DNA from: a virus | Lineage: Duplodnaviria > Heunggongvirae > Uroviricota > Caudoviricetes | DNA length: 40,665 bases | Reading direction: 5' to 3' (one strand) | IMG/VR virus record: IMGVR_UViG_2687453300_000007 | In this document: in pieces, positions 5,712 to 18,697 of the stretch | Layout: every line of letters begins with the position of its first letter | How positions within the stretch are numbered: position 1 is the first letter of the stretch | The notes under the pieces: generated by a model | Told to the model about the DNA's origin: nothing | The model's input: the letters and a program-made list of their open reading frames with translations, nothing else | Database searches by the model: none | Position numbers and translations under genes: made by a program

Positions 5712-6077
5712 ATGATTCTCGCCAACGACTTTCTTGAATACCTGCTCAATACAGAACGTGATCTTGCCGCTCGCGTGCGTGATCGTTATGACATGTACCT
5801 GAAATCCCTGCCTGTACCGCAGCTCGCTGACGGAAAGATTGTTATTGATGGTCGCTACATGATTGACAGCCACGAGGGAAATTACAGGCTTTACCGCATT
5901 GAAGGTGGCACCCCGTCCGTTATTGGCATTTACCAGCGCCCATCCTCTGCAATCGTCGATGTGATTGCCGACAGCATCCGCATCACACATCGCCATGCCG
6001 ACACAGAAGACACCGTGCTGGAAATTCAGCGGCTGGCTACAGTCTGCCGCGACACCCTGAATGGCATGACGAAGTAA
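5712..6077 (+). CDS. Hypothetical early protein (121 aa)
   Basis: ATG 5712 preceded by AAGAGGA; directly upstream of gene A. Confidence 0.5.
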   Translation: MILANDFLEYLLNTERDLAARVRDRYDMYLKSLPVPQLADGKIVIDGRYMIDSHEGNYRLYRIEGGTPSVIGIYQRPSSAIVDVIADSIRITHRHADTEDTVLEIQRLATVCRDTLNGMTK

Positions 6078-6083
6078 ATCACT

Positions 6084-8906
6084 ATGACGGCAGAGTACCT
6101 CAGGGACTGGCAACAACCGCGCCACGCAGTGGGGCGTGAAGGAACGGGGATCCCCGCTCCTGAATCCGCGCTTTCCTCCTGGCTGGATGCCTACCGGGCA
6201 GAGAACGAGCGCCGCCAGGAAATGGCTGATGCGGCGTTCTCAGCCACGCCGCTGGGCAACCTGATTAATAAAAGCCTGGACGCACAGGAAAAACAGGACA
6301 AAACCATCACACTGGCAGGAGACGCCAGAAAACAGGCACGTGGCGCGGTGGATGAAGCCATGGCCTCGCTGCGCCTGCTGCCGTCCTATCTGCGCGATCC
6401 GCTTATTCGCCACCTCTCCTTCCTGCGCAAAAAACAGGAAGCCGATCGCCGGAAAGGCAAAAAGAGCTGGCAGGCGGAACGCTATGCACGCGGAACCCTG
6501 CGCAAAATATTCGAACGTCTGGATAGCACTGACGGACGCTGGCTGACACCGGGTTATCGCTCCCTTGCCGGACGCGAACGCCTGGACGATTTGCTTTACC
6601 TGCCGCAGCTCAACAAACACCAGATACAGACGCTGGCCACCATGACGGCGGCGATGTTCAGCAGCACCTTCGAAAAACTCTGCGATGGCTTTGGCGCGAC
6701 CGATGGCGAGCTGACCATGGATGTAACCCTGAAGGCGTATCAGATGCTGGCCCGCATGGCGTTACACCTGCACGCCATGCCTCCACATTATGACGCACTG
6801 ACAACAGACAAAGACCGGAGGAACGAACCGGACACGGAGCTGCTGCCGGGCGCAATCCTTCGCCTGACCTGTGCGGAATGGTGGAAACGCAAACTGTGGC
6901 TGTTACGTTGCGAGTGGAGAGAAGAACAACTCCGCGCCGCCTGTCTGGTTTCCAGAAAAACATCACCCTATCTGAGCCAGGACGCGTTAAGCGAGTTTCG
7001 CGCACAGCGCGAGAAAACACGCGATTTCCTGAAAAGTTTCATGCTGGAAAATGAAGACGGGTTCACGATTGATCTCGAGACAGTGTATTACGCGGGAGTA
7101 AGTAACCCGGTTCACCGTAAGGCAGAAATGATGGCCACCATGAAGGGACTGGAACTTCTGGCCGAAGCCCGTGGCGACAAAGCGGTGTTTCTGACTGTCA
7201 CCTGCCCGTCAAAATACCACGCCACAACGGAGAACGGTCATCCGAATCCCAAATGGAACGGGGCCACAATGCGCGACTCCAGCGATTACCTGGTTAACAC
7301 GTTTTTTGCGGCGGTCCGCAAAAAACTGAACCGCGACGGCCTGCGCTGGTATGGCATCCGCACGGTGGAGCCTCATCATGACGGCACCGTGCACTGGCAT
7401 ATGATGGTCTTTGCACATCCGGAAGAAATCGACACCATTGTGTCCCATACCCGCGATATTGCCATTCAGGAAGACCGCCACGAGCTGGGCAATGATATTA
7501 CTCCGCGCTTTAAGGTGGAGTATGTCGACGGCTCAAAAGGCACGCCAACCAGCTACATCGCCACCTACATCGGAAAGAACCTGGACAGCCGCGCCGTGGA
7601 TGGCATCGACCCGAAAACGGGCAAGCCACGCGTGGACCACGAAACCGGAAAATCAATGGCCGAGAGCGTGGAGCGCGCCATCGGCTGGGCGCGCCTTCAC
7701 CGGGTCCGTCAGTTCCAGTTCTTTGGCATCCCCTCCCGTCAGGTGTGGCGTGAACTGCGCCGCCTTGCCAGCCAGATGGCACGCAATCCGGAAGGCCCGC
7801 AACGGCTGAAAGATGATGCAATGGATGCGGTACTCGCTGCCGCCGATGCCGGGTGTTTTGCCACCTACATTGAAAAACAGGGTGGCGTGCTTGTTCCACG
7901 CAAGGACTACCTGATTCGCACCGCCTACGACCTCGCAGATGAGCTGAACGATTACGGCGAACAGAGCGTACAGATTTACGGGATCTGGTCACCACTCATC
8001 GGGGAATCCTCCCGTGTGTGCACGCATCCGGATAACTGGAAGCTGGTAAGACGTAAACCGGAAGCGGAAGACAGCGCCCGCGAAAATGGTTTTGACCTTC
8101 AGGGCGGCCCTGCCGCCCCTTGGACTCGTGGCAATAACTGTCCCCGTGTACAGGAAACGGACAACAACGGGACAGAACAGCCGGAAGAACGGCCAGCACC
8201 GTGGCCGCAGCTCCCTGACGGCGTTGAAGTGAACGAATGGATGCGCTCACTGAAACGACACGAACGCCGGGCGCTGATGCGTTCGCTTCGTGACAAACAG
8301 GCAAAAAACAGCAGCGATGAAATGCAGAGCTGGACACAGAGCCGCAAACAGCAGCGGCCTTTGCCTGATAACCACGAATTACTCGCTAAAGAATGGCGGG
8401 AGTCTGCTGAATCTCTCGGCCTGCATATCGGTGAACAACAGATGCAGCACCTGTTACGGGGCGGCAGTCTGTACGTTGACGGCAGCATCATTGCACCGCA
8501 GGGATTTGAAATTGTACGCAAACCGGATACCCGCCCGGACAGCCGAATCACGCAGCTCTGGCAGCGCCTGAGCCGTAATCATGGCGTAAGCAGCACGGAG
8601 ATCCGCCATAACCCGGTCGCCAGCTATCTGGCACAGCTGGGGGCATCAGACCCTGAAGCCGCCGCACGCCTGGCATCCACACTTCAGCAGGGCCAGAACA
8701 CCATGAAAACACCCGTTACCGTGCTTTCTGACATGCTGCGCGCCATCCGCGACGCAGAGCACGCACAGAGAATCAGTGAAACCACTGAACGCGCCAGCCG
8801 CAAAGCAGACCTGCTGCGGGGTGGCCTGACCAGTGGAAACAAAAAACAGACAGAAACGGGACTTACGAATCCCGTAAATGAGCAAAAAACGCGCAGCGAT
8901 ATATGA
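6084..8906 (+). CDS. A: Rolling-circle replication initiation endonuclease (P2 gpA-like)
   Basis: 940-aa ORF carrying the HUH-type motif region …TVEPHHDGTVHWHMMVF… and tyrosine-bearing segment …YIATYIGKN… typical of P2 A-family proteins. Confidence 0.9.
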   Translation: MTAEYLRDWQQPRHAVGREGTGIPAPESALSSWLDAYRAENERRQEMADAAFSATPLGNLINKSLDAQEKQDKTITLAGDARKQARGAVDEAMASLRLLPSYLRDPLIRHLSFLRKKQEADRRKGKKSWQAERYARGTLRKIFERLDSTDGRWLTPGYRSLAGRERLDDLLYLPQLNKHQIQTLATMTAAMFSSTFEKLCDGFGATDGELTMDVTLKAYQMLARMALHLHAMPPHYDALTTDKDRRNEPDTELLPGAILRLTCAEWWKRKLWLLRCEWREEQLRAACLVSRKTSPYLSQDALSEFRAQREKTRDFLKSFMLENEDGFTIDLETVYYAGVSNPVHRKAEMMATMKGLELLAEARGDKAVFLTVTCPSKYHATTENGHPNPKWNGATMRDSSDYLVNTFFAAVRKKLNRDGLRWYGIRTVEPHHDGTVHWHMMVFAHPEEIDTIVSHTRDIAIQEDRHELGNDITPRFKVEYVDGSKGTPTSYIATYIGKNLDSRAVDGIDPKTGKPRVDHETGKSMAESVERAIGWARLHRVRQFQFFGIPSRQVWRELRRLASQMARNPEGPQRLKDDAMDAVLAAADAGCFATYIEKQGGVLVPRKDYLIRTAYDLADELNDYGEQSVQIYGIWSPLIGESSRVCTHPDNWKLVRRKPEAEDSARENGFDLQGGPAAPWTRGNNCPRVQETDNNGTEQPEERPAPWPQLPDGVEVNEWMRSLKRHERRALMRSLRDKQAKNSSDEMQSWTQSRKQQRPLPDNHELLAKEWRESAESLGLHIGEQQMQHLLRGGSLYVDGSIIAPQGFEIVRKPDTRPDSRITQLWQRLSRNHGVSSTEIRHNPVASYLAQLGASDPEAAARLASTLQQGQNTMKTPVTVLSDMLRAIRDAEHAQRISETTERASRKADLLRGGLTSGNKKQTETGLTNPVNEQKTRSDI

Positions 8907-8982: not shown

Positions 8983-9942
8983 ATGAAAATTTGTATCGAC
9001 GACGGCTCCACCAACATCAAGCTGGCATGGACTGAGAATGGCGAACGCCGCAACGCCATCAGCCCGAACAGCTTCAAGTCGGAATGGTCTGCGCCGTTCG
9101 GTGGCATGCAGCCCGCGAACTACATGCTTGATGGCGTGCGCTATGGTTTTGATCCGGTTAGCGATCGCTTTGTCCAGACGACCGACACGCAATACCAGTA
9201 CAGCGATGTGAATGTAATCGCCATTCATCACGCGCTGGTCAAATCAGGCATCACGCCACAGGAGGTGGATGTGGTTGTCACCCTGCCACTGAGCGAGTAT
9301 TTCGACACAAACGCACAGCCGGACATGGCCAACATCAACCGCAAAAAAGCGAACGTTATGCGCCCGGTGGAATACCAGAACGGCGAAGCATTCACTATCC
9401 GTAACGTGCGGGTTATGCCTGAATCCATTCCGGCTGGCTTTAAAGCACTGGCTGACATGAGTCCGTTTGAATCCCTGCTGATTGTGGATTTAGGCGGAAC
9501 CACGCTGGATGTGGCAAAGGTTCAAGGGCAACTGGCAGGTATCAGCCAGGTGTTTTGCGATCCACACGTAGGCGTTTCCCTGATGGCCGATGCCGTACTG
9601 TCGGTGATGGCCACTAACGGTATGCGCACCAGTCACCACATCGCCAATACCATTATCGAACATCGCCATGATGAAGCCTGGCTGCGCCAGCACATCCACA
9701 ATGACGCGCATTACGCCAGCCTGATGGCGGTTATTCGTGAAAAGGAAGAAACACTGAAACAACGCGTGATCCGCGCGCTGGCGGTTTTTTCGGGTTACGG
9801 GCGGGTGATGGTTGTCGGTGGAGGGGCGGAGATTGTGGCACCCGCTATCCGCGAAGTCTGCGGAGTTAATGCGACTTTCATCGCGGACGGGGTGCCACAG
9901 TTTGCTCTGGTTAATGGGCTGTACGCAATGGACAAGGAGTAA
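8983..9942 (+). CDS. parM: ParM/StbA-like actin-type segregation ATPase
   Basis: N-terminus MKICIDDGSTNIKLAW…ISPNSFK…YSDVNVIAIHHAL closely parallels plasmid R1 ParM as I recall it (MLVFIDDGSTNIKLQW…ISPNSFK…YSDVNVVAVHHAL). Also has the DxGGxT phosphate motif (IVDLGGTTLD). Confidence 0.8.
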   Translation: MKICIDDGSTNIKLAWTENGERRNAISPNSFKSEWSAPFGGMQPANYMLDGVRYGFDPVSDRFVQTTDTQYQYSDVNVIAIHHALVKSGITPQEVDVVVTLPLSEYFDTNAQPDMANINRKKANVMRPVEYQNGEAFTIRNVRVMPESIPAGFKALADMSPFESLLIVDLGGTTLDVAKVQGQLAGISQVFCDPHVGVSLMADAVLSVMATNGMRTSHHIANTIIEHRHDEAWLRQHIHNDAHYASLMAVIREKEETLKQRVIRALAVFSGYGRVMVVGGGAEIVAPAIREVCGVNATFIADGVPQFALVNGLYAMDKE

Positions 9943-9946
9943 ACCA

Positions 9947-10261
9947 ATGACGACACCAACCAGACGGATAAGTTTCTATCTGAAGCCCGCCGCCGTCAAG
10001 AGTGAACAGGAGGCGTGCAATTACCTCGATAGCCTGCCAGCCTCCGAACGCAGCCGCGCGCAACGCGCGGCCTTTCTGGCTGGGCTAGCGCTCATAAAGC
10101 GCAACCCAGCATTTGCCTACTGGATGGCCGAATGGCCAGAGGACAACCTCCCCTTCAATACCGTTAGCATCAAGGAAACATACCAGGATAATCAGCCTAG
10201 CGGAGTTGAATGCAATTTTTATAAAATAAAAAAGAATATTCAGACCTTATTCCCAGAATAA
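9947..10261 (+). CDS. parR: ParR-like centromere-binding protein (putative)
   Basis: ATG 9947 with AAGGAG SD 7 nt upstream, 5 bp after the parM stop. Segment RRISFYLKP…YLDSLPASERSRAQRAAFLAGLAL resembles the RHH N-terminus of R1 ParR (…LDSIPQGERSRLNRAALTAGLAL…). Confidence 0.65.
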   Translation: MTTPTRRISFYLKPAAVKSEQEACNYLDSLPASERSRAQRAAFLAGLALIKRNPAFAYWMAEWPEDNLPFNTVSIKETYQDNQPSGVECNFYKIKKNIQTLFPE

Positions 10262-10344: not shown

Positions 10345-11187
10345 TCATGATGAAATTGCCGAAGTTTTTTTATCGTGCTGAAGTACCGCAAATGCCATTA
10401 AAACCTCAAGAGAATAGCGGCGATAATACTTAACAAAACCATAATAAAATACTCGGGATGCAGCAATACAAAACAAGAGAAGAAAACAAAAAGGTAACAG
10501 TCTGATATTTATATCTATTAAAAAGGATAGAAGGAGCAGGAACATAAGCAACCAGACTGAAGCGAGAAAAACAAATGTAATGTTTCTACAAAAACCATAC
10601 AAAGCAACATAGTTTTGCATTTTCACCTGATGATTTTTAGAATGTTCATACACATAATGATAAGCAAGGCGAAAAAGATCGCCCCTCAAGCCCTTACGTC
10701 GATATAGCGTAGATACAGAAAAAACATTTATATAACCATCTCGTATTTGCGGCCAAAAGACTTTAATAAGTATAGAATGCAGTGTGGTTTTATGATGTTC
10801 TGCTTTATCAAAAGCTGATACAGGAAATAAAAAAACTCCACGAATAAAATTAACTATACTGAACTTAGTATTATGTCGTTTTATTTTCAGGGAGCTTCTT
10901 TTAGAAAACAGATAAATTGAAGGATACCCAAGTTTACTGTTCATGTATTTTTCAATTAAACAGGATGATAGAATAGATATGAAGTGACCTGAAATATATG
11001 ATAGAACGATTAATACCACATATATAAATACACTTATTATTTCTTTATATTTCAGGATATGGTTAAGAATACCTTCTATATAAACAGGGTTAATTTCAAT
11101 AGAAAACAAAAAAAGGATAAACAGGAATAACCCACCTGGAATTAGATAGCCCAAAAAGTCATAAAATGAAAACGGATTCTGTGTCAC
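10345..11187 (-). CDS. Hypothetical polytopic membrane protein (280 aa, about 4 TM)
   Basis: GTG start at 11187 with strong SD (AGGGGGAAG). Two N-terminal and two C-terminal hydrophobic helices flank a soluble stretch of about 125 aa. AT-rich with atypical codon usage. No family recognised. Confidence 0.6.
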   Translation of the reverse strand: MTQNPFSFYDFLGYLIPGGLFLFILFLFSIEINPVYIEGILNHILKYKEIISVFIYVVLIVLSYISGHFISILSSCLIEKYMNSKLGYPSIYLFSKRSSLKIKRHNTKFSIVNFIRGVFLFPVSAFDKAEHHKTTLHSILIKVFWPQIRDGYINVFSVSTLYRRKGLRGDLFRLAYHYVYEHSKNHQVKMQNYVALYGFCRNITFVFLASVWLLMFLLLLSFLIDINIRLLPFCFLLLFCIAASRVFYYGFVKYYRRYSLEVLMAFAVLQHDKKTSAISS

Positions 11188-11226
11188 ACTTCCCCCTGTG
11201 TTACTTGTAAATTAAAGGGTAAAACA

Positions 11227-11724
11227 TTATTTGTTTTTCCGTAAAGGATTAGCTTTCCATCTTCTTACTAACCATTCGAATTCTTGATATGTAGTATCCG
11301 AATTAATGCTTTCTCTGATTGCTTTAATTAATGGCTCGGCAATATCATATGTCTCTACAACTGTTGTGTAAGATGTTCTTTTTATCATTTTTTCATCATA
11401 AATACCTTCACGAATACTTACAGCAACTCGCTCGTAAAAATTTAAAATATATTGAAATTTTCGACGCTCGGCCATTTCTTCATCTGTTATTATGCAACCA
11501 TCACAAGGAAAAACATAAGAACGAAATGATTTGCCTGAACGATGCACTTGTTTCAGGGTATGCAATGACTCTATATATTGCATATCTTGCCGACTCTCAA
11601 AAAGAAAGTTGGCCGTTTGAGTTTTTTTTGCGGTACGCACATTGTAGATAATGGTTCCAATGGCAACCAAAACGCCAAGCAGAACAATAGCATTGCTGAT
11701 GATTTGTAGTGTTATTGGGTTCAT
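11227..11724 (-). CDS. Hypothetical single-pass membrane protein (165 aa)
   Basis: N-terminal TM helix (ITLQIISNAIVLLGVLVAIGTIIY) followed by a soluble domain of about 135 aa. Lies 39 bp upstream of the 280-aa gene on the same strand. AT-rich. Confidence 0.6.
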   Translation of the reverse strand: MNPITLQIISNAIVLLGVLVAIGTIIYNVRTAKKTQTANFLFESRQDMQYIESLHTLKQVHRSGKSFRSYVFPCDGCIITDEEMAERRKFQYILNFYERVAVSIREGIYDEKMIKRTSYTTVVETYDIAEPLIKAIRESINSDTTYQEFEWLVRRWKANPLRKNK

Positions 11725-11738
11725 CCTATTTCATCCAT

Positions 11739-11765
11739 AAAAAAGGCGGGGAGCAAATCCCCGCC
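11739..11765 (-). terminator. Intrinsic terminator/attenuator immediately upstream of the 165-aa gene
   Basis: On the minus strand: 8-bp GC stem GGCGGGGA / TCCCCGCC with a 5-nt loop, followed by TTTTTTAT. It ends 14 nt before the ATG at 11724. Confidence 0.6.
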
Positions 11766-11785
11766 TCATTAGAGGTCAACGTAGC

Positions 11786-11821
11786 TTAGAAACCATCAAA
11801 TTCATCATACATTTTTTTCAT
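11786..11821 (-). CDS. Putative 11-codon leader peptide (MKKMYDEFDGF)
   Basis: Minus-strand ATG 11821 preceded by GAGGGGG SD at 5-nt spacing. Stop at 11786..11788, about 20 nt upstream of the terminator stem. Confidence 0.3.
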   Translation of the reverse strand: MKKMYDEFDGF

Positions 11822-11921
11822 ATCAACCCCCTCATAGAAATCATAACCACGTTTTGTGGTTTTTGTGACGTATAAACTACATCAAAGGCAAGCCACGGTC
11901 AAATATATAGGCATGCTTACC

Positions 11922-12020
11922 TGCACAAAAGTGCACAAATTTGCACAATTTTTTTGAACGACTTTTTACCCTTCCGGCCCGCATGGCGGCTGGATCCGTC
12001 AAGGATCCGTGCGTGCACAA
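11922..12020. repeat. Iterated TGCACAA heptamers at 10-bp phasing, plus GGATCCGT direct repeat
   Basis: TGCACAA at 11922, 11932 and 11942 (exact 10-bp period) and again at 12014. GGATCCGT at 11992 and 12003. Located in non-coding DNA between the cargo operon and the orphan gene. Confidence 0.55.
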
Positions 12021-12320
12021 AAAAACGCGCTTTTTCTGCGCGCAGGTGACGGGGGAACAGCCCGCGTTTCAGGGGGTAAATAGCATTCCCTGAACGATGT
12101 CGCAGAGACACAACAGAATGGCCATATTTCTCACGCTGAGCATGAAAAAGGCGTGAGGGCTTTTGATTTGATGGGGTGAAAGGTAAGGCCGTCAAAATCG
12201 CACTGAGGCAGCGAGAACATGCAGTCAACGCGGTGGAATTGCGTAAGAGTCTGACCGTCGATGGTGGCGATAAACTGGAAGGCGTCGTGAAATTATCTGA
12301 TTGATACAGGAGCTGGAGAG

Positions 12321-12347
12321 CCGGGGCATAAATTTTTTATGCCCCGG
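12321..12347. repeat. Near-perfect 27-bp palindrome
   Basis: CCGGGGCATAAATTTTTTATGCCCCGG, with no flanking U-tract on either strand. About 100 bp upstream of the 174-aa gene. Confidence 0.5.
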
Positions 12348-12447
12348 CGAAGCAGCAGACAAGCGAAGCGCGTCAGCGATACGGCACCTTGCCGACCATA
12401 CTTCATAAGTGCAAAATACGAGCAAAGAAATCAATGGAGGCTGTCTT

Positions 12448-12972
12448 ATGGTCATTAATTACAAGCAGTTAAGAGAAAAACGGGAGCAGGTAAAGGAGAG
12501 CTTTCGCCGCAATGAAGATCTGACCCCGCTTGTACGCCTTGCCCAGGGCATTGTTGATGCTTATGAAATCTCGCTGGAGCTGCCATCACAGACCTGGACA
12601 GATAGCGACGGTAATCGCCAGCATTACGTTTCATGCGGACTGGAAGCAGCCGAAGGATTTCGCAGAATGCCTTTATCCCAGATCCCTGCCGCTACCCCCA
12701 AAGCACGGGGCAGCAATGATGAGCGAAAACTGACTTTTAGTATTGAAACGGTGGTTGACGACACACCTGGCGAAGTCGCGTTCGTGCACACTCCTGTTTC
12801 GATCGCAATGTATAACGATGAAATACAGGTTCGCGTTAATAATAATATCGTGCCACTTAAAGAAGGTAATTCACCCTACACCACCGTTTGTGAAGCCATT
12901 CAATATTACGTTCTCTCTGAAATTGATAATCTCAAGCCTGACGGCACCCAGAAAATGGTTCAACTCTGGTAA
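12448..12972 (+). CDS. Hypothetical protein (174 aa) between the cos region and portal gene
   Basis: ATG 12448 with GGAGG SD 7 nt upstream (the track ORF starts at an upstream GTG). Convergent with Q. No family recognised. Confidence 0.5.
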   Translation: MVINYKQLREKREQVKESFRRNEDLTPLVRLAQGIVDAYEISLELPSQTWTDSDGNRQHYVSCGLEAAEGFRRMPLSQIPAATPKARGSNDERKLTFSIETVVDDTPGEVAFVHTPVSIAMYNDEIQVRVNNNIVPLKEGNSPYTTVCEAIQYYVLSEIDNLKPDGTQKMVQLW

Positions 12973-12977
12973 AAAGG

Positions 12978-13004
12978 ACAGCCCCATCACGGGGCTGTTT
13001 TTTC
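12978..13004. terminator. Bidirectional intrinsic terminator between the 174-aa gene and Q
   Basis: Stem ACAGCCCCATCACGGGGCTGT with TTTTTT on the plus strand and a T-rich run on the minus strand. Confidence 0.6.
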
Positions 13005-14033
13005 ATCAAGAAGAGCATAAGAGTTAAAACGGATCACCTCTTCGCCAAGCCAGTCATTGATGTGCTTCATAGCCTCCATAACGGGCATCAGCTCGTTAAT
13101 TGCGTAAACCCGCGCTGCCTTCTCCACATCGCCAAACGCACTTTTTTCGCCCGGCATCGCCCCCATCAGTTGCGGCGGAACGCGGTGCGCAGCCAGCACA
13201 TCATCACGGGATGCCGCCTTAACATTCATGAATTCATCTTTTGCGGTGATCTGCTGGAACGGCAAAATTTGCACCCCCTCTTTGCCCCCGTTGGGCGCAT
13301 GAATGAGCACGTTTTTAAACGCACCACCACCACGTGCCCCCTGTAGCGTTTCTTTCAGGGAGTCCATGCTTTCGCGGTTTACCTGCGCTGCACCGATGTA
13401 GATGATGCACCCGGCGTGGGATCCGTTGTCGTAGTACAGTTTTCTGAACATGTCCGCCGAATGAGAAAGGCTGGCCGAGAGTAATGCGCCAAGATATTCC
13501 GGCATGCCGTAGATTTCCTGGTTAATATCCGGATTCATCAGGTGGCACACTTTGCCAGGACGAAACTGAAACGCGTCCTTGCCATCCTGCACATACCACC
13601 ATGATTCAAGATCGCTTCCGCGTCGCATGTATTTCGCCAGGGCGTGCCGTAATTTAAGCGGTTCGCCGAGCATATTGCTTCGAAGCTCAAGGAATGCGTT
13701 ACCGAACACAAACCAGTCCAGCGCCAGCGCCGAGAAATCCTGCCGGGAAAGCAGCGGGTGCGGGATGTAGCAACCGAGTAATACATTGCGCTTAAAGTAA
13801 AGCGCAGACTGATGCCAGGACGTTTGCCGGGCTGCTCTTGCCAGACCGTACCAGTCCACCGGGGTTTCATACCACCGCCCGTTATCAGCACAGTACATAT
13901 TGTCCAGCAGGTCATGCCCGGTCAGGCGATAAGGACCATCAAATGTGAATGCACTGAGCGATGATTCTTTCCTGAGCGCATCAGCGAGATCAATGCGTGA
14001 ACTCATGCGCACTTTTTTATTTTTTCTGCTCAT
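12987..14033 (-). CDS. Q: Portal protein (P2 gpQ-like)
   Basis: 348-aa ORF, P2 Q-like in size and position (leftward, adjacent to P, near the cos side). Confidence 0.85.
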   Translation of the reverse strand: MSRKNKKVRMSSRIDLADALRKESSLSAFTFDGPYRLTGHDLLDNMYCADNGRWYETPVDWYGLARAARQTSWHQSALYFKRNVLLGCYIPHPLLSRQDFSALALDWFVFGNAFLELRSNMLGEPLKLRHALAKYMRRGSDLESWWYVQDGKDAFQFRPGKVCHLMNPDINQEIYGMPEYLGALLSASLSHSADMFRKLYYDNGSHAGCIIYIGAAQVNRESMDSLKETLQGARGGGAFKNVLIHAPNGGKEGVQILPFQQITAKDEFMNVKAASRDDVLAAHRVPPQLMGAMPGEKSAFGDVEKAARVYAINELMPVMEAMKHINDWLGEEVIRFNSYALLDEKTAP

Positions 14034-15784
14034 CAGAACTCCATAACCATGAAACGCTCGTTTTCTCCTTCGCCGCCAATTGGTTCGTTAATGACAGCAA
14101 GCATGGTTGCCCACGCAAGGTCGCCGTGGCTGATCCCCCTCGCGCGGTCCGTTTCGTAAGTGATAAAGCCGCCCGGTGTTTTCACCTTACGCACGGCGTT
14201 AAAGGCCGCGACCAGCTCGCGTTCGGCGCGATCGTATTCCCACCGCCCGGCACGCATTATTTGCAGCATTTTCAGTACCAGCGACCGTTTTGATGACAGC
14301 GTGAAGGTGTACGGAATAGCAGCAGGGAAAAACCGCTTCACTATCTGATAAACAGCCTCCCCGTTCCCGCCCGTCACATCAATGCCGATGTGTTCCACGT
14401 TGTAGCGACACGTGAACTCTTCAATGACTCTGGCCTGTTCTTCAAACTCCAGCCCCTGAACGCGTCGCGTCTCCACCGTTCGAAAACGGCCGCCAGGAAC
14501 AGCCGGAGGAACCACCACGGACACAGCGCCGCTGTCGCCGTTGCCACTACTGCCGTTTGCGTCATACCCAATCCATACCGGACGATTCCCCATCGGGCGG
14601 GGAGCAAAAGGTTTCCAGTCTTTCCAGTCGTCGTATCCGTCAACACCGCAGCCAATCAGGATATTCAGGTTAAATGCCGATTCCCCTTCGCGGACAAACT
14701 CACACATATAGAGATTGAGGAACTCGTCTTCGGTGTTTTCATCACGAATTTCGTCGATATCGGTGTGTTTCCAGCCGTGATTAACCACATCTTCCAGCGT
14801 GACAATTTGCCGCCACGTCCGGTCAGGGCAGATAAGCCCATTATGCAGCGTTTTCCAGTCCACAGAAAAACGCTGGCGTTTATGCGAGGCCTTTTTCTCG
14901 TTCCAGCGGTCGCCGTTCCAGTAGGCGTATGCCTCGTGCGTTTCGGTGGATGGCGTGGAGAAGTAGGTGCGCCGCAGTCCGCTGAGGGTTGCCATAGCGC
15001 CAGCCACCTTGCGCAGTTCAGCAAAGCGACTGACCCAGAAAAATTCATCAAAATAAAAATTGCCCGTATAGGACTGTGCCGACGCAGCAGAAGTGCCGAG
15101 AAAATGCAGCTCTGCGCCGTTGGAGAGGATGATTTTATCGCCCCCTTTCAGCTCCACATCAACTTCAGCCGCGGCCTTCTGAATAATGCTTTTAAACTGG
15201 AACGCCTGACGACGCGACGCAGACAAAAAAATCTGGTTACGCTGGTAAGGTTGCGCCACATCGTCACGCAGCGCCATCAGCAGTGCTTCCTGTGCAAAAT
15301 ACCAGGTCGCCCCAATCTGTCGGGATTTCAGGATCATCCTGTTACGTATCCCGGCTTCCCTGCAAAGGGTCAGGGAGTCAAACCAGCCCCGCTGATGCCA
15401 CTCCAGCCTGCTGATGATTTTTTCCCGCAGTGCGGCAATCTGTTCCGGCGTGAAATGATTTTTGAGTTTTTTCGCCCGGCCTTTCTTTCCTGCGGCCATC
15501 ACATCCGGCTGGCCATCATGCAGCTTTTTAAGCTGCCGGGTCAGCAGGTCTATTTCCTTAAAGTCACCGCCTGTTTTATTCTGTTTTTCAGTAAGCTGGA
15601 TGAGGCGCGCATCGATGGACTGCGTGACACGCTGCACGGGTGGCGTTTCATCCCACTGGTCACGTTTTTTCCACGCATAAATCGTGTTCGGGTTTATTCC
15701 CATCAGACGTGATATTTCTGCGGGCGGATAACCCTGCCAGTAAAGTTGCCGCGCACGCTGGCGCACAAAAGCGTCCTGAATCAT
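14033..15784 (-). CDS. P: Terminase large subunit, ATPase (P2 gpP-like)
   Basis: 583-aa ORF divergent from the O-N-M-L operon; size and position match P2 P. Confidence 0.85.
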   Translation of the reverse strand: MIQDAFVRQRARQLYWQGYPPAEISRLMGINPNTIYAWKKRDQWDETPPVQRVTQSIDARLIQLTEKQNKTGGDFKEIDLLTRQLKKLHDGQPDVMAAGKKGRAKKLKNHFTPEQIAALREKIISRLEWHQRGWFDSLTLCREAGIRNRMILKSRQIGATWYFAQEALLMALRDDVAQPYQRNQIFLSASRRQAFQFKSIIQKAAAEVDVELKGGDKIILSNGAELHFLGTSAASAQSYTGNFYFDEFFWVSRFAELRKVAGAMATLSGLRRTYFSTPSTETHEAYAYWNGDRWNEKKASHKRQRFSVDWKTLHNGLICPDRTWRQIVTLEDVVNHGWKHTDIDEIRDENTEDEFLNLYMCEFVREGESAFNLNILIGCGVDGYDDWKDWKPFAPRPMGNRPVWIGYDANGSSGNGDSGAVSVVVPPAVPGGRFRTVETRRVQGLEFEEQARVIEEFTCRYNVEHIGIDVTGGNGEAVYQIVKRFFPAAIPYTFTLSSKRSLVLKMLQIMRAGRWEYDRAERELVAAFNAVRKVKTPGGFITYETDRARGISHGDLAWATMLAVINEPIGGEGENERFMVMEF

Positions 15785-17896: not shown

Positions 17897-18697
17897 ATGA
17901 TTACTCCTGCACAACAACACTGGCAGAACGTGATGGCACAGCGCGCAGGCCGGGCGAATGAAGGTGTGGACCACGCCGCGTGTACCGCGCATGAAGAGGT
18001 GCTGTATCGTCTGCGTCTGGCACAGGCCAGGCTAAAGGCCATACAGGCCAGAAGCGCGAAAGCCGCCATCAAAAAAGAGTTGTTGCCGGACTTTTCCGGC
18101 TGGATTGAGGGAACGCTGGAGGCTGACGGCGGGCAACAGGACGAAGTAATTGCCACGCTGATGGTGTGGGCGATTGACTGCGGCGATCTTCCGCTGGCGC
18201 TGCGTATTGGTGCATATGTGGTCCGTCACAACCTCATCATGCCGGATAACTTTGGCCGTACTGCTGCCACGGTACTGACCGAAGAAATCTGCAACCCGGT
18301 ACTGACGCAGGCTGGGACGGATGCCGACGCGGATTTATCCGCCTTTATCGAACCACTGGACACACTTTGGGAAATTATCGCCAACCAGGACATGCCGGAC
18401 GAAGTGCGCGCCAAATTATGCAAGGCGTGTGCCTTTGCCCGTCGTGGCCTGACCGATGCAGACAACATGGCCTCATCACTGAAGCTGCTGCGCGAAGCGA
18501 TGCACCTGAACCCGAACGCAGGTGTGAAACGCGAGATTGCAACCCTTTCCCGCGCCCTGAAAAAAGCCGATTCCGCAGCCGAACCAGAAGACGCCAGCGC
18601 ACAGCAGGCGCAGGACGAAAGCAGCAAAAGTAAAAAGACAACGCGGAAGCCTGCAACACGAAAAACCACCGCGACGCAGAAGGCAAAGCGCGGTTAA
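17897..18697 (+). CDS. M: Terminase small/endonuclease subunit (P2 gpM-like)
   Basis: 266-aa ORF between N and L; basic C-terminal tail. Confidence 0.75.
   Translation: MITPAQQHWQNVMAQRAGRANEGVDHAACTAHEEVLYRLRLAQARLKAIQARSAKAAIKKELLPDFSGWIEGTLEADGGQQDEVIATLMVWAIDCGDLPLALRIGAYVVRHNLIMPDNFGRTAATVLTEEICNPVLTQAGTDADADLSAFIEPLDTLWEIIANQDMPDEVRAKLCKACAFARRGLTDADNMASSLKLLREAMHLNPNAGVKREIATLSRALKKADSAAEPEDASAQQAQDESSKSKKTTRKPATRKTTATQKAKRG

Follow-up and report, generated by a model that had tools for sequence, protein, structure and literature searches.

Organization of the region beside the portal gene

The window analyzed here, 40,665 nucleotides of viral DNA (IMG/VR record IMGVR_UViG_2687453300_000007), derives from a P88-like prophage (Xuanwuvirus, P2 family) of Escherichia coli ST131. 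On its minus strand, the portal gene (12987-14033) and the gene for the large terminase subunit, a gpP homologue (14033-15784), are both transcribed towards the site described below, which lies between the replication-gene and cargo side and the 3′ end of the leftward portal gene. The small terminase subunit is encoded on the plus strand at 17897-18697 (PF05944, E = 2.4e-37; 37% identity to P2 gpM). P2-family phages have their cos site between gpA and gpQ, adjoining a cargo hotspot, and share it with P4 (PMC9122126). In these phages, the cohesive end, 19 nucleotides long, is part of a cos region conserved over 55 bp (Ziermann & Calendar 1990, cited by both PMC3931495 and PMC9122126); PMC3931495 mentions this region without stating its limits. 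The original prediction treated approximately 640 bp of repeat-rich noncoding DNA beside the portal gene as one element, but we found three unrelated pieces (11736-11921, 11922-12087, and 12088-12376).

The left piece belongs to a leftward cargo gene for a 165-residue DUF4760 protein, which starts at 11724 directly after its minus-strand leader (11736-11869); a second cargo protein, of 280 residues, gave a weak Csx27-like match (Pfam, PADLOC). The leader possesses a consensus promoter match (11869-11840) that is not conserved, a Shine-Dalgarno sequence (11833-11827), a conserved ORF of 11 codons (MKKMYDEFDGF, 11821-11786), and, as an intrinsic terminator, a stem at 11767-11743 with a T-run reaching 11736. 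In seven diverged versions, the C-terminus FDEFDGF of the mini-ORF stayed the same although its codons had undergone synonymous changes; compensatory changes were present in the terminator stem. The earlier view that the interval holds no convincing ORF was correct for the ORFs listed, those across 11917-12228 overlapping the central piece, but it overlooked this short one. An Rfam search of 11000-13200 at E ≤ 1 returned nothing above the gathering score; the sole match, SorX-like, fell on the leader terminator at a sub-threshold 19.3 bits (cut-off 46.6).

The right piece is lineage-specific noncoding DNA that terminates in a 45-bp dyad. Its stretch up to the dyad (12088-12311), characteristic of the Xuanwuvirus lineage, matched no Pfam family. 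ORF42 (42 codons, 12176-12304) is probably spurious as a gene; in-frame stops or a frameshift were present in 3 of 44 versions, and the variable columns, distributed 24/19/15 by codon position, displayed no third-position excess. Analysis of 12064-12376 for structured RNA by RNAalifold revealed no convincing covariation on either strand; double changes affected 3 of approximately 75 pairs and many pairs were broken, at a divergence too low for a firm verdict.

The dyad (12312-12356) consists of 13-bp inner arms (12320-12348), a 3-nucleotide loop, a 4 × 4 internal loop, and 4-bp outer arms. Within it lies what had been described as a perfect 27-bp palindrome (12321-12347); the sequence and position of that description were accurate, whereas the structure is an inverted repeat, CCGGGGCATAAA-TTT-TTTATGCCCCGG, with 12-bp arms around a 3-nucleotide center. 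Folded as RNA, either strand of the dyad had a calculated energy of −29 to −32 kcal/mol (z = −7 to −7.5). It was nearly invariant in 86 relatives, among which no compensatory changes were found. The suggestion that the palindrome forms part of cos was not supported, as it lies outside the shared unit and at the place of a portal-operon terminator. In P88, approximately 25 nucleotides separate the portal stop codon from the end of the inner stem, which corresponds to the location of tQ in P2 and of tW in 186 after the portal gene. The dyad differs from intrinsic terminators of the tQ/tW type in that neither strand provides a U-tract (flanks CGAAGCAGC on the plus strand and CTCTCCAGC on the minus strand), and a terminator scan of the window did not list it. 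From its position, it is most likely what was once the terminator, or a 3′ stem, of the portal operon. Unlike in P2 and 186, an inserted cargo gene stands between this structure and the portal gene of the window, which now has its own canonical terminator. The insertion (12377-13020, plus strand) is missing from P88 and takes the place of the final portal codons. It contains ORF174 (12448-12972, plus strand; without a match in Pfam or PADLOC) and, at 12978-12998, a bidirectional terminator. Arrival of the insertion would have been a later event that separated the dyad from the portal gene.

TGCACAA boxes and the predicted cohesive end

The central piece, the probable cos unit (11922-12087), comprises boxes 1-3, box 4 with an A-run, and a G-rich segment. 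Boxes 1-3 are TGCACAA heptamers at 11922, 11932, and 11942 (11922-11948, plus strand; 10 bp start to start) and form a putative primary recognition array for the small terminase. A T-run, TTTTTTTGA (11949-11957, plus strand; 1.04 bits, commonest base frequency 0.79), directly follows box 3. Box 4 starts at 12014, exactly 72 bp after box 3, and together with its A-run (12014-12025, plus strand) makes up the left edge of a conserved block adjoining the predicted cohesive end. These motif positions, along with those of the GGATCCGT copies at 11992 and 12003, were all as originally predicted. TGCACAA is ordinary in number over the whole window (10 observed, 10.8 expected). First-order Markov simulation of the window, repeated 300 times, never gave three or more copies within 100 bp, and for any one copy the Poisson probability that three others fall within 100 bp is approximately 5e-7.

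We assessed conservation in relatives that were picked by their portal protein alone, with the cos sequence not used; 39 loci of this set had, downstream of the portal, a homologous stretch of 155 bp. The heptamer boxes were the most conserved columns, with information contents of 1.59, 1.44, 1.85, and 1.90 bits for boxes 1 to 4, and the predicted cosN had 1.56 bits, compared to 0.4-1.0 bits for the spacers and 0.19 bits for the left flank. Box 4 read TGCAY in 33 of 36 loci. Boxes 1 and 2 did so in 18 and 22 of the 36, respectively, and may be dispensable given this degeneracy in about half of the relatives. The spacer sequences diverged while the spacings stayed invariant: 72 bp separated boxes 3 and 4 in 41 of 42 sequences, and 36 bp separated box 4 from a CGGGG core in all 42, P2, 186, and P4 among them. 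The triple box occurred at 120 IMG/VR loci, with box 4 at +92 in 103 of them and GGTGACGGGGG at +123 in 97. Complete sites numbered 105, and in 99 of them a minus-strand portal gene followed 376-1070 bp away; the distance from box 1 to the portal stop was approximately 900-1070 bp at 12 of these loci versus 376-499 bp at the other 87.

The spacer between the T-run and box 4 (11958-12013, plus strand) is fixed in length and variable in sequence. It holds the GGATCCGT direct repeat (11992-11999 and 12003-12010), for which an iteron function had been envisaged. We obtained no support for such a function: the two copies had only 0.79 and 0.56 bits, with 40% and 51% identity to the window across relatives, and the repeat is specific to the E. 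coli/P88 lineage and missing from the satellite cos described below. The window contains three copies versus 1.08 expected, a count reached in 11 of 100 shuffled sequences, so the repeat is significant only by adjacency and not by number.

Box 4, within TGCACAAAAAAA, is succeeded by a G+C-rich hairpin (12025-12043, minus strand), in agreement with the TGCAY, A-run, and G+C-rich order of the proximal block in P2-family cos sites. The terminator scan lists this hairpin as GCGCGCAGAAAAAGCGCGT + TTTTTTGTGC, and with the following T7 run it resembles an intrinsic terminator; a similar hairpin can be seen by eye in the P2, 186, and P4 sequences, and it is not kept in all relatives. Beyond it, the G-rich segment at 12043-12063 (plus strand) is the predicted cosN, the future 19-nucleotide 5′ cohesive end, which aligns with the mapped ends of P2, 186, PSP3, and P4. 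The segment is related to GGCGAGGCGGGGAAAGCAC, the 19-nucleotide cohesive end of the P2 family, and lies at the fixed distance from box 4. Strict spacing places the end at 12043-12061 (CAGGTGACGGGGGAACAGC; 10 of 19 positions identical to the P2 cohesive end), whereas sequence similarity favors 12045-12063 (GGTGACGGGGGAACAGCCC; 13 of 19 identical to P2), and the predicted nick positions are uncertain by approximately 2 nucleotides. Searching the window for the P2 cohesive end with three mismatches allowed gave no match because the site is too diverged; it was located instead by layout and profile comparison. An intermediate class of relatives carries a clearly P2-like GGCGAGGCGGGGGAGCAAGC / GGCGAGGCGGGGG at the same place, and a P2 cos query matched this segment in loci L038 (E = 6.7e-5) and L032. 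No linear phage records or viral contigs of the lineage ending at the predicted cosN were found, and cleavage at 12043-12063 is predicted by homology. Phages vB_EcoM-569R5 and PhiR44_2 show 100% identity to the window in this region. The right flank of the unit (CGCG...GGGGG..., 12064-12087, plus strand; 1.07 bits) reaches the point where similarity to the satellite stops.

Comparison with known cos sites and proposed terminase recognition

The records of P2, 186, and P4 start at mapped cohesive ends, with TGCAT boxes at −123/−124, −111, −101, and −29; in PSP3 the boxes are found at −120, −111, −101, and −29, and those of the window lie at −123, −113, −103, and −31 relative to 12045. The TGCACAA boxes thus align one for one with TGCAT boxes beside experimentally mapped cohesive ends, and the region of box 4 is the counterpart of TGCATTAAAA at −29 in P2, 186, PSP3, and P4; this alignment supports the earlier expectation that cos lies inside the interval and that the phased heptamers belong to it. 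Common to the window and these four systems are the position between the gpA-side cargo hotspot and the portal 3′ end, three boxes approximately 100-125 bp before the cut, a fourth with an A-run approximately 30 bp before it, a G-rich cohesive segment with a CGGGG core, and identical 72-bp and 36-bp spacings. Apart from such shared features, the stretch from box 3 to box 4 shows no sequence relationship between P2 and P4. The minimal P2 cos measures approximately 125 bp. The window differs in its box sequence (TGCACAA rather than TGCAT(T)), in the spacing of the first three boxes (10 + 10 bp versus 9-13 + 10 bp), in a cohesive segment only 10-13/19 identical to that of P2, and in the distance from cosN to the original portal stop (approximately 310 bp compared to 170 bp in P2). 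The ends of those four were mapped experimentally, and those of the window lineage are predicted.

Two more distant systems provide further comparisons. Pseudomonas phage phiCTX follows the same plan, with TGCAGAAAAA at −28, phased YGCAG boxes at −109 and −99, and more at −83 and −37, and its record (NC_003278) already annotates repeats R3 and R4-R6 and an IHF site around cos; it differs in its 21-nucleotide cohesive end, in the sequence and number of its boxes, and in its distant host. The lambda cos combines cosN with cosB, in which sites R3-I1-R2-R1 are bound by gpNu1 and IHF (see PMC4856287). The two arrangements are alike in principle, each having small-terminase repeats on one side of the nick, one near cosN and the others past a bendable spacer. 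A lambda-type cos with R sites and a Nu1-family small terminase was rejected for the window: the small terminase belongs to PF05944, there is no sequence relationship, and the array lies on the cosN side away from the packaging genes, unlike in lambda, leaving a functional analogy only.

Taken together, the layout and sequence homology to mapped cos sites, the concentration of conservation in the boxes and cosN, the invariant spacings, the adjoining portal gene, and retention by a satellite make it likely that 11922-12087 is the cos site of this prophage, recognized by terminase as outlined here. A cos site at this place is an expected feature of a P2-like prophage, with swapped-in cargo DNA on its flanks. 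The TGCACAA boxes are probably docking points for the phage terminase, which we regard as the best reading of them in view of their alignment with P2-family boxes, their top conservation, and their retention by the satellite. An oligomer of the gpM homologue would bind boxes 1-3, which the 10-bp spacing would place on one face of the helix, and the same oligomer would bind box 4, 72 bp (approximately seven turns) further on, and would thus bend or wrap the fixed-length spacer. The gpP homologue would thereby be positioned over the G-rich segment approximately 30 bp past box 4 (12043-12063), where it would make staggered nicks to generate the 19-nucleotide 5′ cohesive end. The changed box sequence fits a small terminase that is only 37% identical to P2 gpM. 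The gpM homologue, the presumed binder of the boxes and bender of the spacer, had no relative in a PDB sequence search.

Other explanations were weighed for both the cut and the boxes. It is very unlikely that the DNA is cut elsewhere in the conserved unit, near 11966/11967, with the G-rich segment acting only as a flanking recognition element. The sole linear close relative, P88_4B11 (NC_049391), does end with ...GAACGAATTTT and start with TGCCCTTCC..., a break equivalent to window 11966/11967, and the adjoining CCCTTCCGGCC is moderately conserved; a literature search on how the ends of that record were set found nothing. The break, however, falls in the spacer and not at the predicted cosN, its junction is seamless and lacks a duplicated overhang, and the surrounding 11958-11991 has only 0.87 bits and 41% identity to the window across relatives. 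P2, 186, PSP3, and P4 are moreover cut 29 bp after box 4, in keeping with the constant box 4-CGGGG distance and with the P2-like GGCGAGGCGGGGG at the predicted cosN of the intermediate class. If the site is cos, its boxes might still be bound by a host architectural protein, or act by intrinsic curvature of A/T-tracts, rather than being read by the small terminase. Phased A- and T-runs surround the boxes, phiCTX has its annotated IHF site beside the cos repeats, and our literature search found no structural or footprinting data and no report of gpM binding to the boxes. We nevertheless consider this unlikely, as a host factor would be expected to use one constant motif, whereas the box differs among lineages on the single host E. 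coli (TGCAT in P2, 186, and P4; TGCAC in P88-like phages), with YGCAG in phiCTX; the letters TGCAC themselves are also conserved (1.85-1.90 bits) beyond what base composition would give.

The original prediction also offered roles for the array outside packaging. That the boxes serve as operators or promoter elements for the neighboring cargo genes or for late transcription is highly improbable, even though the mapped old-tin transcript of P2 starts approximately 25-30 bp left of box 1, with a −35 hexamer that by our own reading of the sequence overlaps that box. Cargo left of the boxes varies or is replaced while the boxes are unchanged, and the core homology found in 1148 E. coli genomes begins at 11921/11922 (box 1) whatever cargo is present; the satellite likewise retains the boxes in a wholly different gene context. 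The sole promoter-like match of the window is 50 bp outside the boxes and not conserved. Two Ogr-type TGT-N12-ACA dyads do occur in the interval (11864 and 12098), but we treated them as chance matches, as the pattern is under-represented in the window (5 versus 10 expected) and is absent from the intergenic region that separates the portal-terminase operon from the scaffold operon, in which late promoters would be expected from the arrangement in P2. To the proposal that the heptamers are a parC-type centromere of a prophage ParM/ParR system we give next to no credence. ParM and a partition protein are encoded approximately 1.7-2.9 kb to the left (8983-10261), and centromeres of such partition systems, as in parC of plasmid R1, are iteron arrays; the array here, however, adjoins the portal gene and is separated from parMR by cargo genes. 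The same box layout is present in P2, 186, P4, PSP3, and phiT5282H, with no parMR annotated beside cos in the stretches examined, and in the satellite, which also has the array, the 12 kb inspected shows no par annotation.

Possible packaging specificity and a satellite with the probable cos site

Just as the P2-family cos is common to P4, that of the window is common to a satellite. This element, in E. coli ETEC6333, encodes an integrase, a toprim primase, an ogr/Delta-like protein, and a P2-family capsid protein, and the 6 kb flanking its cos in each direction contained no annotated portal or terminase gene. Such sharing is typical of P2-family cos sites, which serve satellites dependent on the helper terminase. 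The similarity to the P88-like phages is limited to 167 bp (11921-12087, corresponding to 6001-6167 of locus L064), with homology ending near 12085, and it includes all four boxes, their spacings, and cosN. We found the satellite locus in 53 E. coli genomes and two IMG/VR contigs.

Of 5426 complete E. coli genomes, 1148 (about a fifth) carry the prophage type with this cos, ST131 included. The comparison defines the boundaries of the cargo and defense hotspot at the base level, with cargo starting directly left of box 1, and points to the portal stop codon as a second insertion point beside the hotspot. The small hypothetical proteins annotated across the region in P88-family records are probably spurious, and 11915-12090 could serve as a minimal cos cassette in cosmids or transducing particles built from P88-like phages.

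More tentatively, and with the odds somewhat against it, the (T/Y)GCAN boxes in their 3 + 1 arrangement, with 72-bp and 36-bp spacings that do not vary, may be the gpM recognition code of the whole P2 family, with the box variant (TGCAT in P2, 186, and P4; TGCAC in P88-like phages, Novemvirus, and Klebsiella phages; YGCAG in phiCTX) deciding which satellites a helper packages. Four boxes and two fixed spacings offer a compact, testable model of terminase recognition in the family, and the variants suggest how helper-satellite pairing could be set. If the model is correct, the ST131 prophage would belong to a packaging-specificity group separate from that of P2, and this group would have its own family of capsid-encoding satellites that copied exactly these 167 bp.

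Box layout and identity of the cos unit

The element is a P2-family prophage. A gpA-type replication gene (6084-8906), ParM with a partition protein, and two leftward cargo genes (10345-11187, and 11227-11724 for the DUF4760 protein) lie left of the putative cos unit (11922-12087); an ORF of 174 or 187 codons (12409/12448-12972), the portal gene (12987-14033, minus strand), and the large terminase gene (14033-15784, minus strand) lie to its right. Many E. coli ST131 chromosomes, as well as the phage records vB_EcoM-569R5 and vB_EcoM-705R2, match the 751 bp around the interval 11771-12408 at 100% identity, and P88 and other members of the P88-like genus Xuanwuvirus matched part of this stretch at 93-95% identity. 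The same cos unit and a P88-type portal (99% identical) were also present on NZ_JBQPOM010000071, labelled 'Vagococcus sp. WN89Y' after a Gram-positive genus, probably through assembly contamination or mislabelling.

All motifs of the original prediction were recovered at their positions, including TGCACAA at 11922, 11932, 11942, and 12014 (boxes 1-4). The heptamer was not over-represented in the window (10 copies observed, 10.8 expected), but four same-strand copies within 99 bp are far above chance; even three per 100 bp were reached in none of 300 Markov simulations (Poisson estimate 5e-7). The box layout matches that of the cos regions of P2, 186, P4, and PSP3. The first base of the P2, 186, and P4 records is their experimentally mapped cohesive end, so the ends of each record were joined and positions counted from the first base of the 19-nt overhang. 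The TGCAT boxes of these three records lie at -123/-124, -111, -101, and -29, those of PSP3 at -120, -111, -101, and -29, and the TGCACAA boxes of the window at -123, -113, -103, and -31 when counted from GGTGACGGGGGAACAGCCC at 12045. P4 relies on the P2 terminase (PMC9122126). The stretch from box 3 to box 4 is otherwise unrelated in sequence in P2 and P4, which makes the boxes retained by P4 prime candidates for recognition elements.

Relatives gathered by portal protein alone (52 loci in species-representative genomes) carried a homologous segment 3' of the portal gene in 39 cases, as detected with a profile of window 11905-12075, in genera including Citrobacter, Enterobacter, Kosakonia, Klebsiella, Pantoea, Erwinia, Brenneria, Serratia, Symbiopectobacterium, and Morganella; a P2 cos query matched the same portal-downstream segment in two of these loci. 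One alignment class carries the GGTGACGGGGGAAC of the window, and a second carries GGCGAGGCGGGGGAGCAAGC, which is clearly P2-like yet accompanied by TGCAC boxes and so bridges the window and P2. Conservation was concentrated in boxes 1-4 (1.59, 1.44, 1.85, and 1.90 bits) and in the G-rich segment with the candidate cohesive-end sequence, cosN (1.56 bits); the spacers reached 0.4-1.0 bits and the left flank 0.19 bits. In 41 of 42 sequences box 4 lay 72 bp after box 3, and the CGGGG core lay 36 bp after box 4 in all 42, including P2, 186, and P4; a geometry-constrained spacer should look like this, fixed in length and free in sequence. Scanning IMG/VR for the triple box yielded 120 loci, with box 4 at +92 in 103 and GGTGACGGGGG at +123 in 97, and a minus-strand portal gene lay 376-1070 bp beyond the site in 99 of 105 complete sites.

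Homology of relatives to the window was confined to 11922-12376, and a more distant Enterobacter phage had only 11922-12066 in common with it. Of 5426 complete E. coli genomes, 1148 matched the 176-bp core, with the match beginning at 11921/11922, the first base of box 1; DNA to the left of that point is cargo-specific. These comparisons indicate that 11922-12087 is the cos site of the prophage, whereas the remainder of the interval 11771-12408, for which the original prediction had proposed cos or terminase-binding elements, consists of a cargo leader on the left and non-cos DNA on the right; the interval thus holds three separate things. The suggestions that the boxes are cargo operators or ParR-binding sites were unsupported. 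Since any P2-family prophage is expected to carry a cos unit, its novelty is limited to that of a new, unmapped member among known cos sites. Repeats beside cos are not a new idea in the P2 family either, because repeats and an IHF site are already marked around cos in the public record of phiCTX.

Candidate cut position and proposed terminase binding

Projecting the P2 overhang by the invariant spacing places the candidate cut segment at 12043-12061, and projecting it by sequence similarity (GGYGA..., 13/19) places it at 12045-12063. No linear records or viral contigs ending at the predicted cosN were found. The linear record of a close relative, the Xuanwuvirus P88_4B11 (NC_049391), begins and ends at window 11966/11967, within the box 3-box 4 spacer and ~78 bp before the predicted cut, as would be the case if the true cut were near that position; however, its junction is seamless, with no overhang duplicated, and the break is probably an arbitrary record start.

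By analogy with lambda cosB, the PF05944 small terminase (17897-18697) would bind the boxes, with boxes 1-3, one helical turn apart, presenting a single face and box 4, seven turns further, bringing the complex to the nick site; we infer binding, bending, and nicking at the cos unit. A phage-encoded reader of the boxes is favored over a host protein because their sequence differs between lineages in the same host (TGCAT and TGCAC, both in E. coli); in phiCTX it is YGCAG.

On the minus strand, a GC hairpin (12025-12043) lying between cosN and box 4 and followed by a T-run to 12018, the complement of the box-4 A-run, resembles an intrinsic terminator that would halt leftward transcription soon after it has passed cosN. 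Visual inspection showed a similar hairpin and T-run in P2, 186, and P4, and they are absent from several relatives. In P2 (NC_001895 33424-33475), the mapped start sites of the old-tin transcript are ~25-30 bp to the left of box 1 of cos, and a -35-like TTGAAT, as read from the sequence, overlaps that box; binding of terminase might therefore interfere with cargo transcription at this site, or the reverse.

DNA flanking and within the cos unit

The left part of the interval belongs to the leader of the DUF4760 cargo gene (11736-11869, minus strand). An 11-codon mini-ORF (MKKMYDEFDGF, 11821-11786) with a strong upstream Shine-Dalgarno sequence is followed by an intrinsic terminator (11767-11743 plus a T-run), directly beyond which DUF4760 starts at 11724, all on the minus strand. 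FDEFDGF is kept in seven diverged versions through synonymous changes, the terminator stem varies in compensatory fashion, and the promoter region upstream of the mini-ORF is unconserved. The region looks like a translated leader with an attenuator-like terminator. Phe accounts for 3-4 of the 11 mini-ORF residues. The leader may be a leader-peptide attenuator, but no clear antiterminator was found. The two-gene cargo (10345-11724, minus strand) sits in a cos-proximal hotspot; PADLOC matched its 280-aa protein weakly to Csx27 (E = 1.1e-5), its 165-aa DUF4760 protein shares 78% identity with 'memP' of Citrobacter phage Shae_phiSM, and the pair may be a membrane-associated defence candidate.

The direct repeat GGATCCGT (11992 and 12003) is considered incidental on present comparisons. 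Its three copies in the window (1.08 expected) were matched by 11 of 100 shuffles, it is restricted to the E. coli/P88 lineage, and semi-conservation is limited to the GGATC in the second copy, within one class of relatives. The small 'hypothetical proteins' of the P88 family at 11941-12093 and 12176-12304 (plus strand; P88 gp21 and gp22) overlap the cos unit or have no coding signature and are probably annotation artefacts; the latter, a 42-codon ORF annotated in P88 records, lacks that signature and is probably not a gene. The activator motif of P2 late promoters (Ogr/Delta type), a TGT-N12-ACA dyad, occurs five times in the window, and two of these dyads flank the cos unit (11864-11881 and 12098-12115). 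They were treated as chance occurrences, as the motif is under-represented overall and has no match between the portal-terminase and scaffold operons.

Farther right, the predicted 27-bp palindrome exists as an inverted repeat (12+3+12) but is part of a longer 45-bp dyad (12312-12356), within a ~95-bp stretch that is almost invariant in 86 relatives. In P88, the dyad lies just past the portal stop, with the inner stem ~25 nt away, the same place that tQ occupies in P2 and tW in 186. It fails a formal terminator test because a U-tract is absent, and no compensatory changes were found among the 86 relatives. We tentatively regard it as a terminator or 3' stabilizer of the portal operon, giving this reading slightly less than an even chance; the main alternative is a protein-binding site. 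In the window, an insertion missing from P88 (12377 to about 13020) severs the dyad from the portal gene. It brought ORF174 (12448-12972), which matched no Pfam or PADLOC family, a canonical intrinsic terminator that is bidirectional (12978-12998), and new C-terminal codons for the portal gene. The insertion joins the phage DNA at the former portal stop codon and, at its other junction, within the 3' end of the portal gene, whose final codons are therefore unlike those of P88. This places a second cargo slot across cos from the first.

A satellite-like element with the same cos unit

The weakest full-length E. coli match to the core was in strain ETEC6333 (NZ_CP122600 4120943-4133109), in a satellite-like element adjoining host hpt. 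It encodes an Icd-like protein, a toprim primase, an integrase, an ogr/Delta-like protein, a 236-aa hypothetical protein, its own P2-family major capsid protein, and MazEF; neither a portal nor a terminase is annotated in the 6 kb to each side of its cos. The only DNA it has in common with P88-like phages is window 11921-12087. Its cos retains boxes 1-4 at unchanged spacing as well as the G-rich segment; the spacer is largely different and both GGATCCGT copies are absent. The same locus was found in 53 complete E. coli genomes, its overlap with some 410 P88-type prophages being the 167-bp piece only, and two further copies (L171 and L186) are in IMG/VR. The satellite provides independent functional evidence for the cos unit; it parallels the P2-P4 relationship and delimits the functional unit. 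The family-wide plan of three boxes plus one with fixed spacings, together with the matching satellite, are the parts most deserving of experiment.
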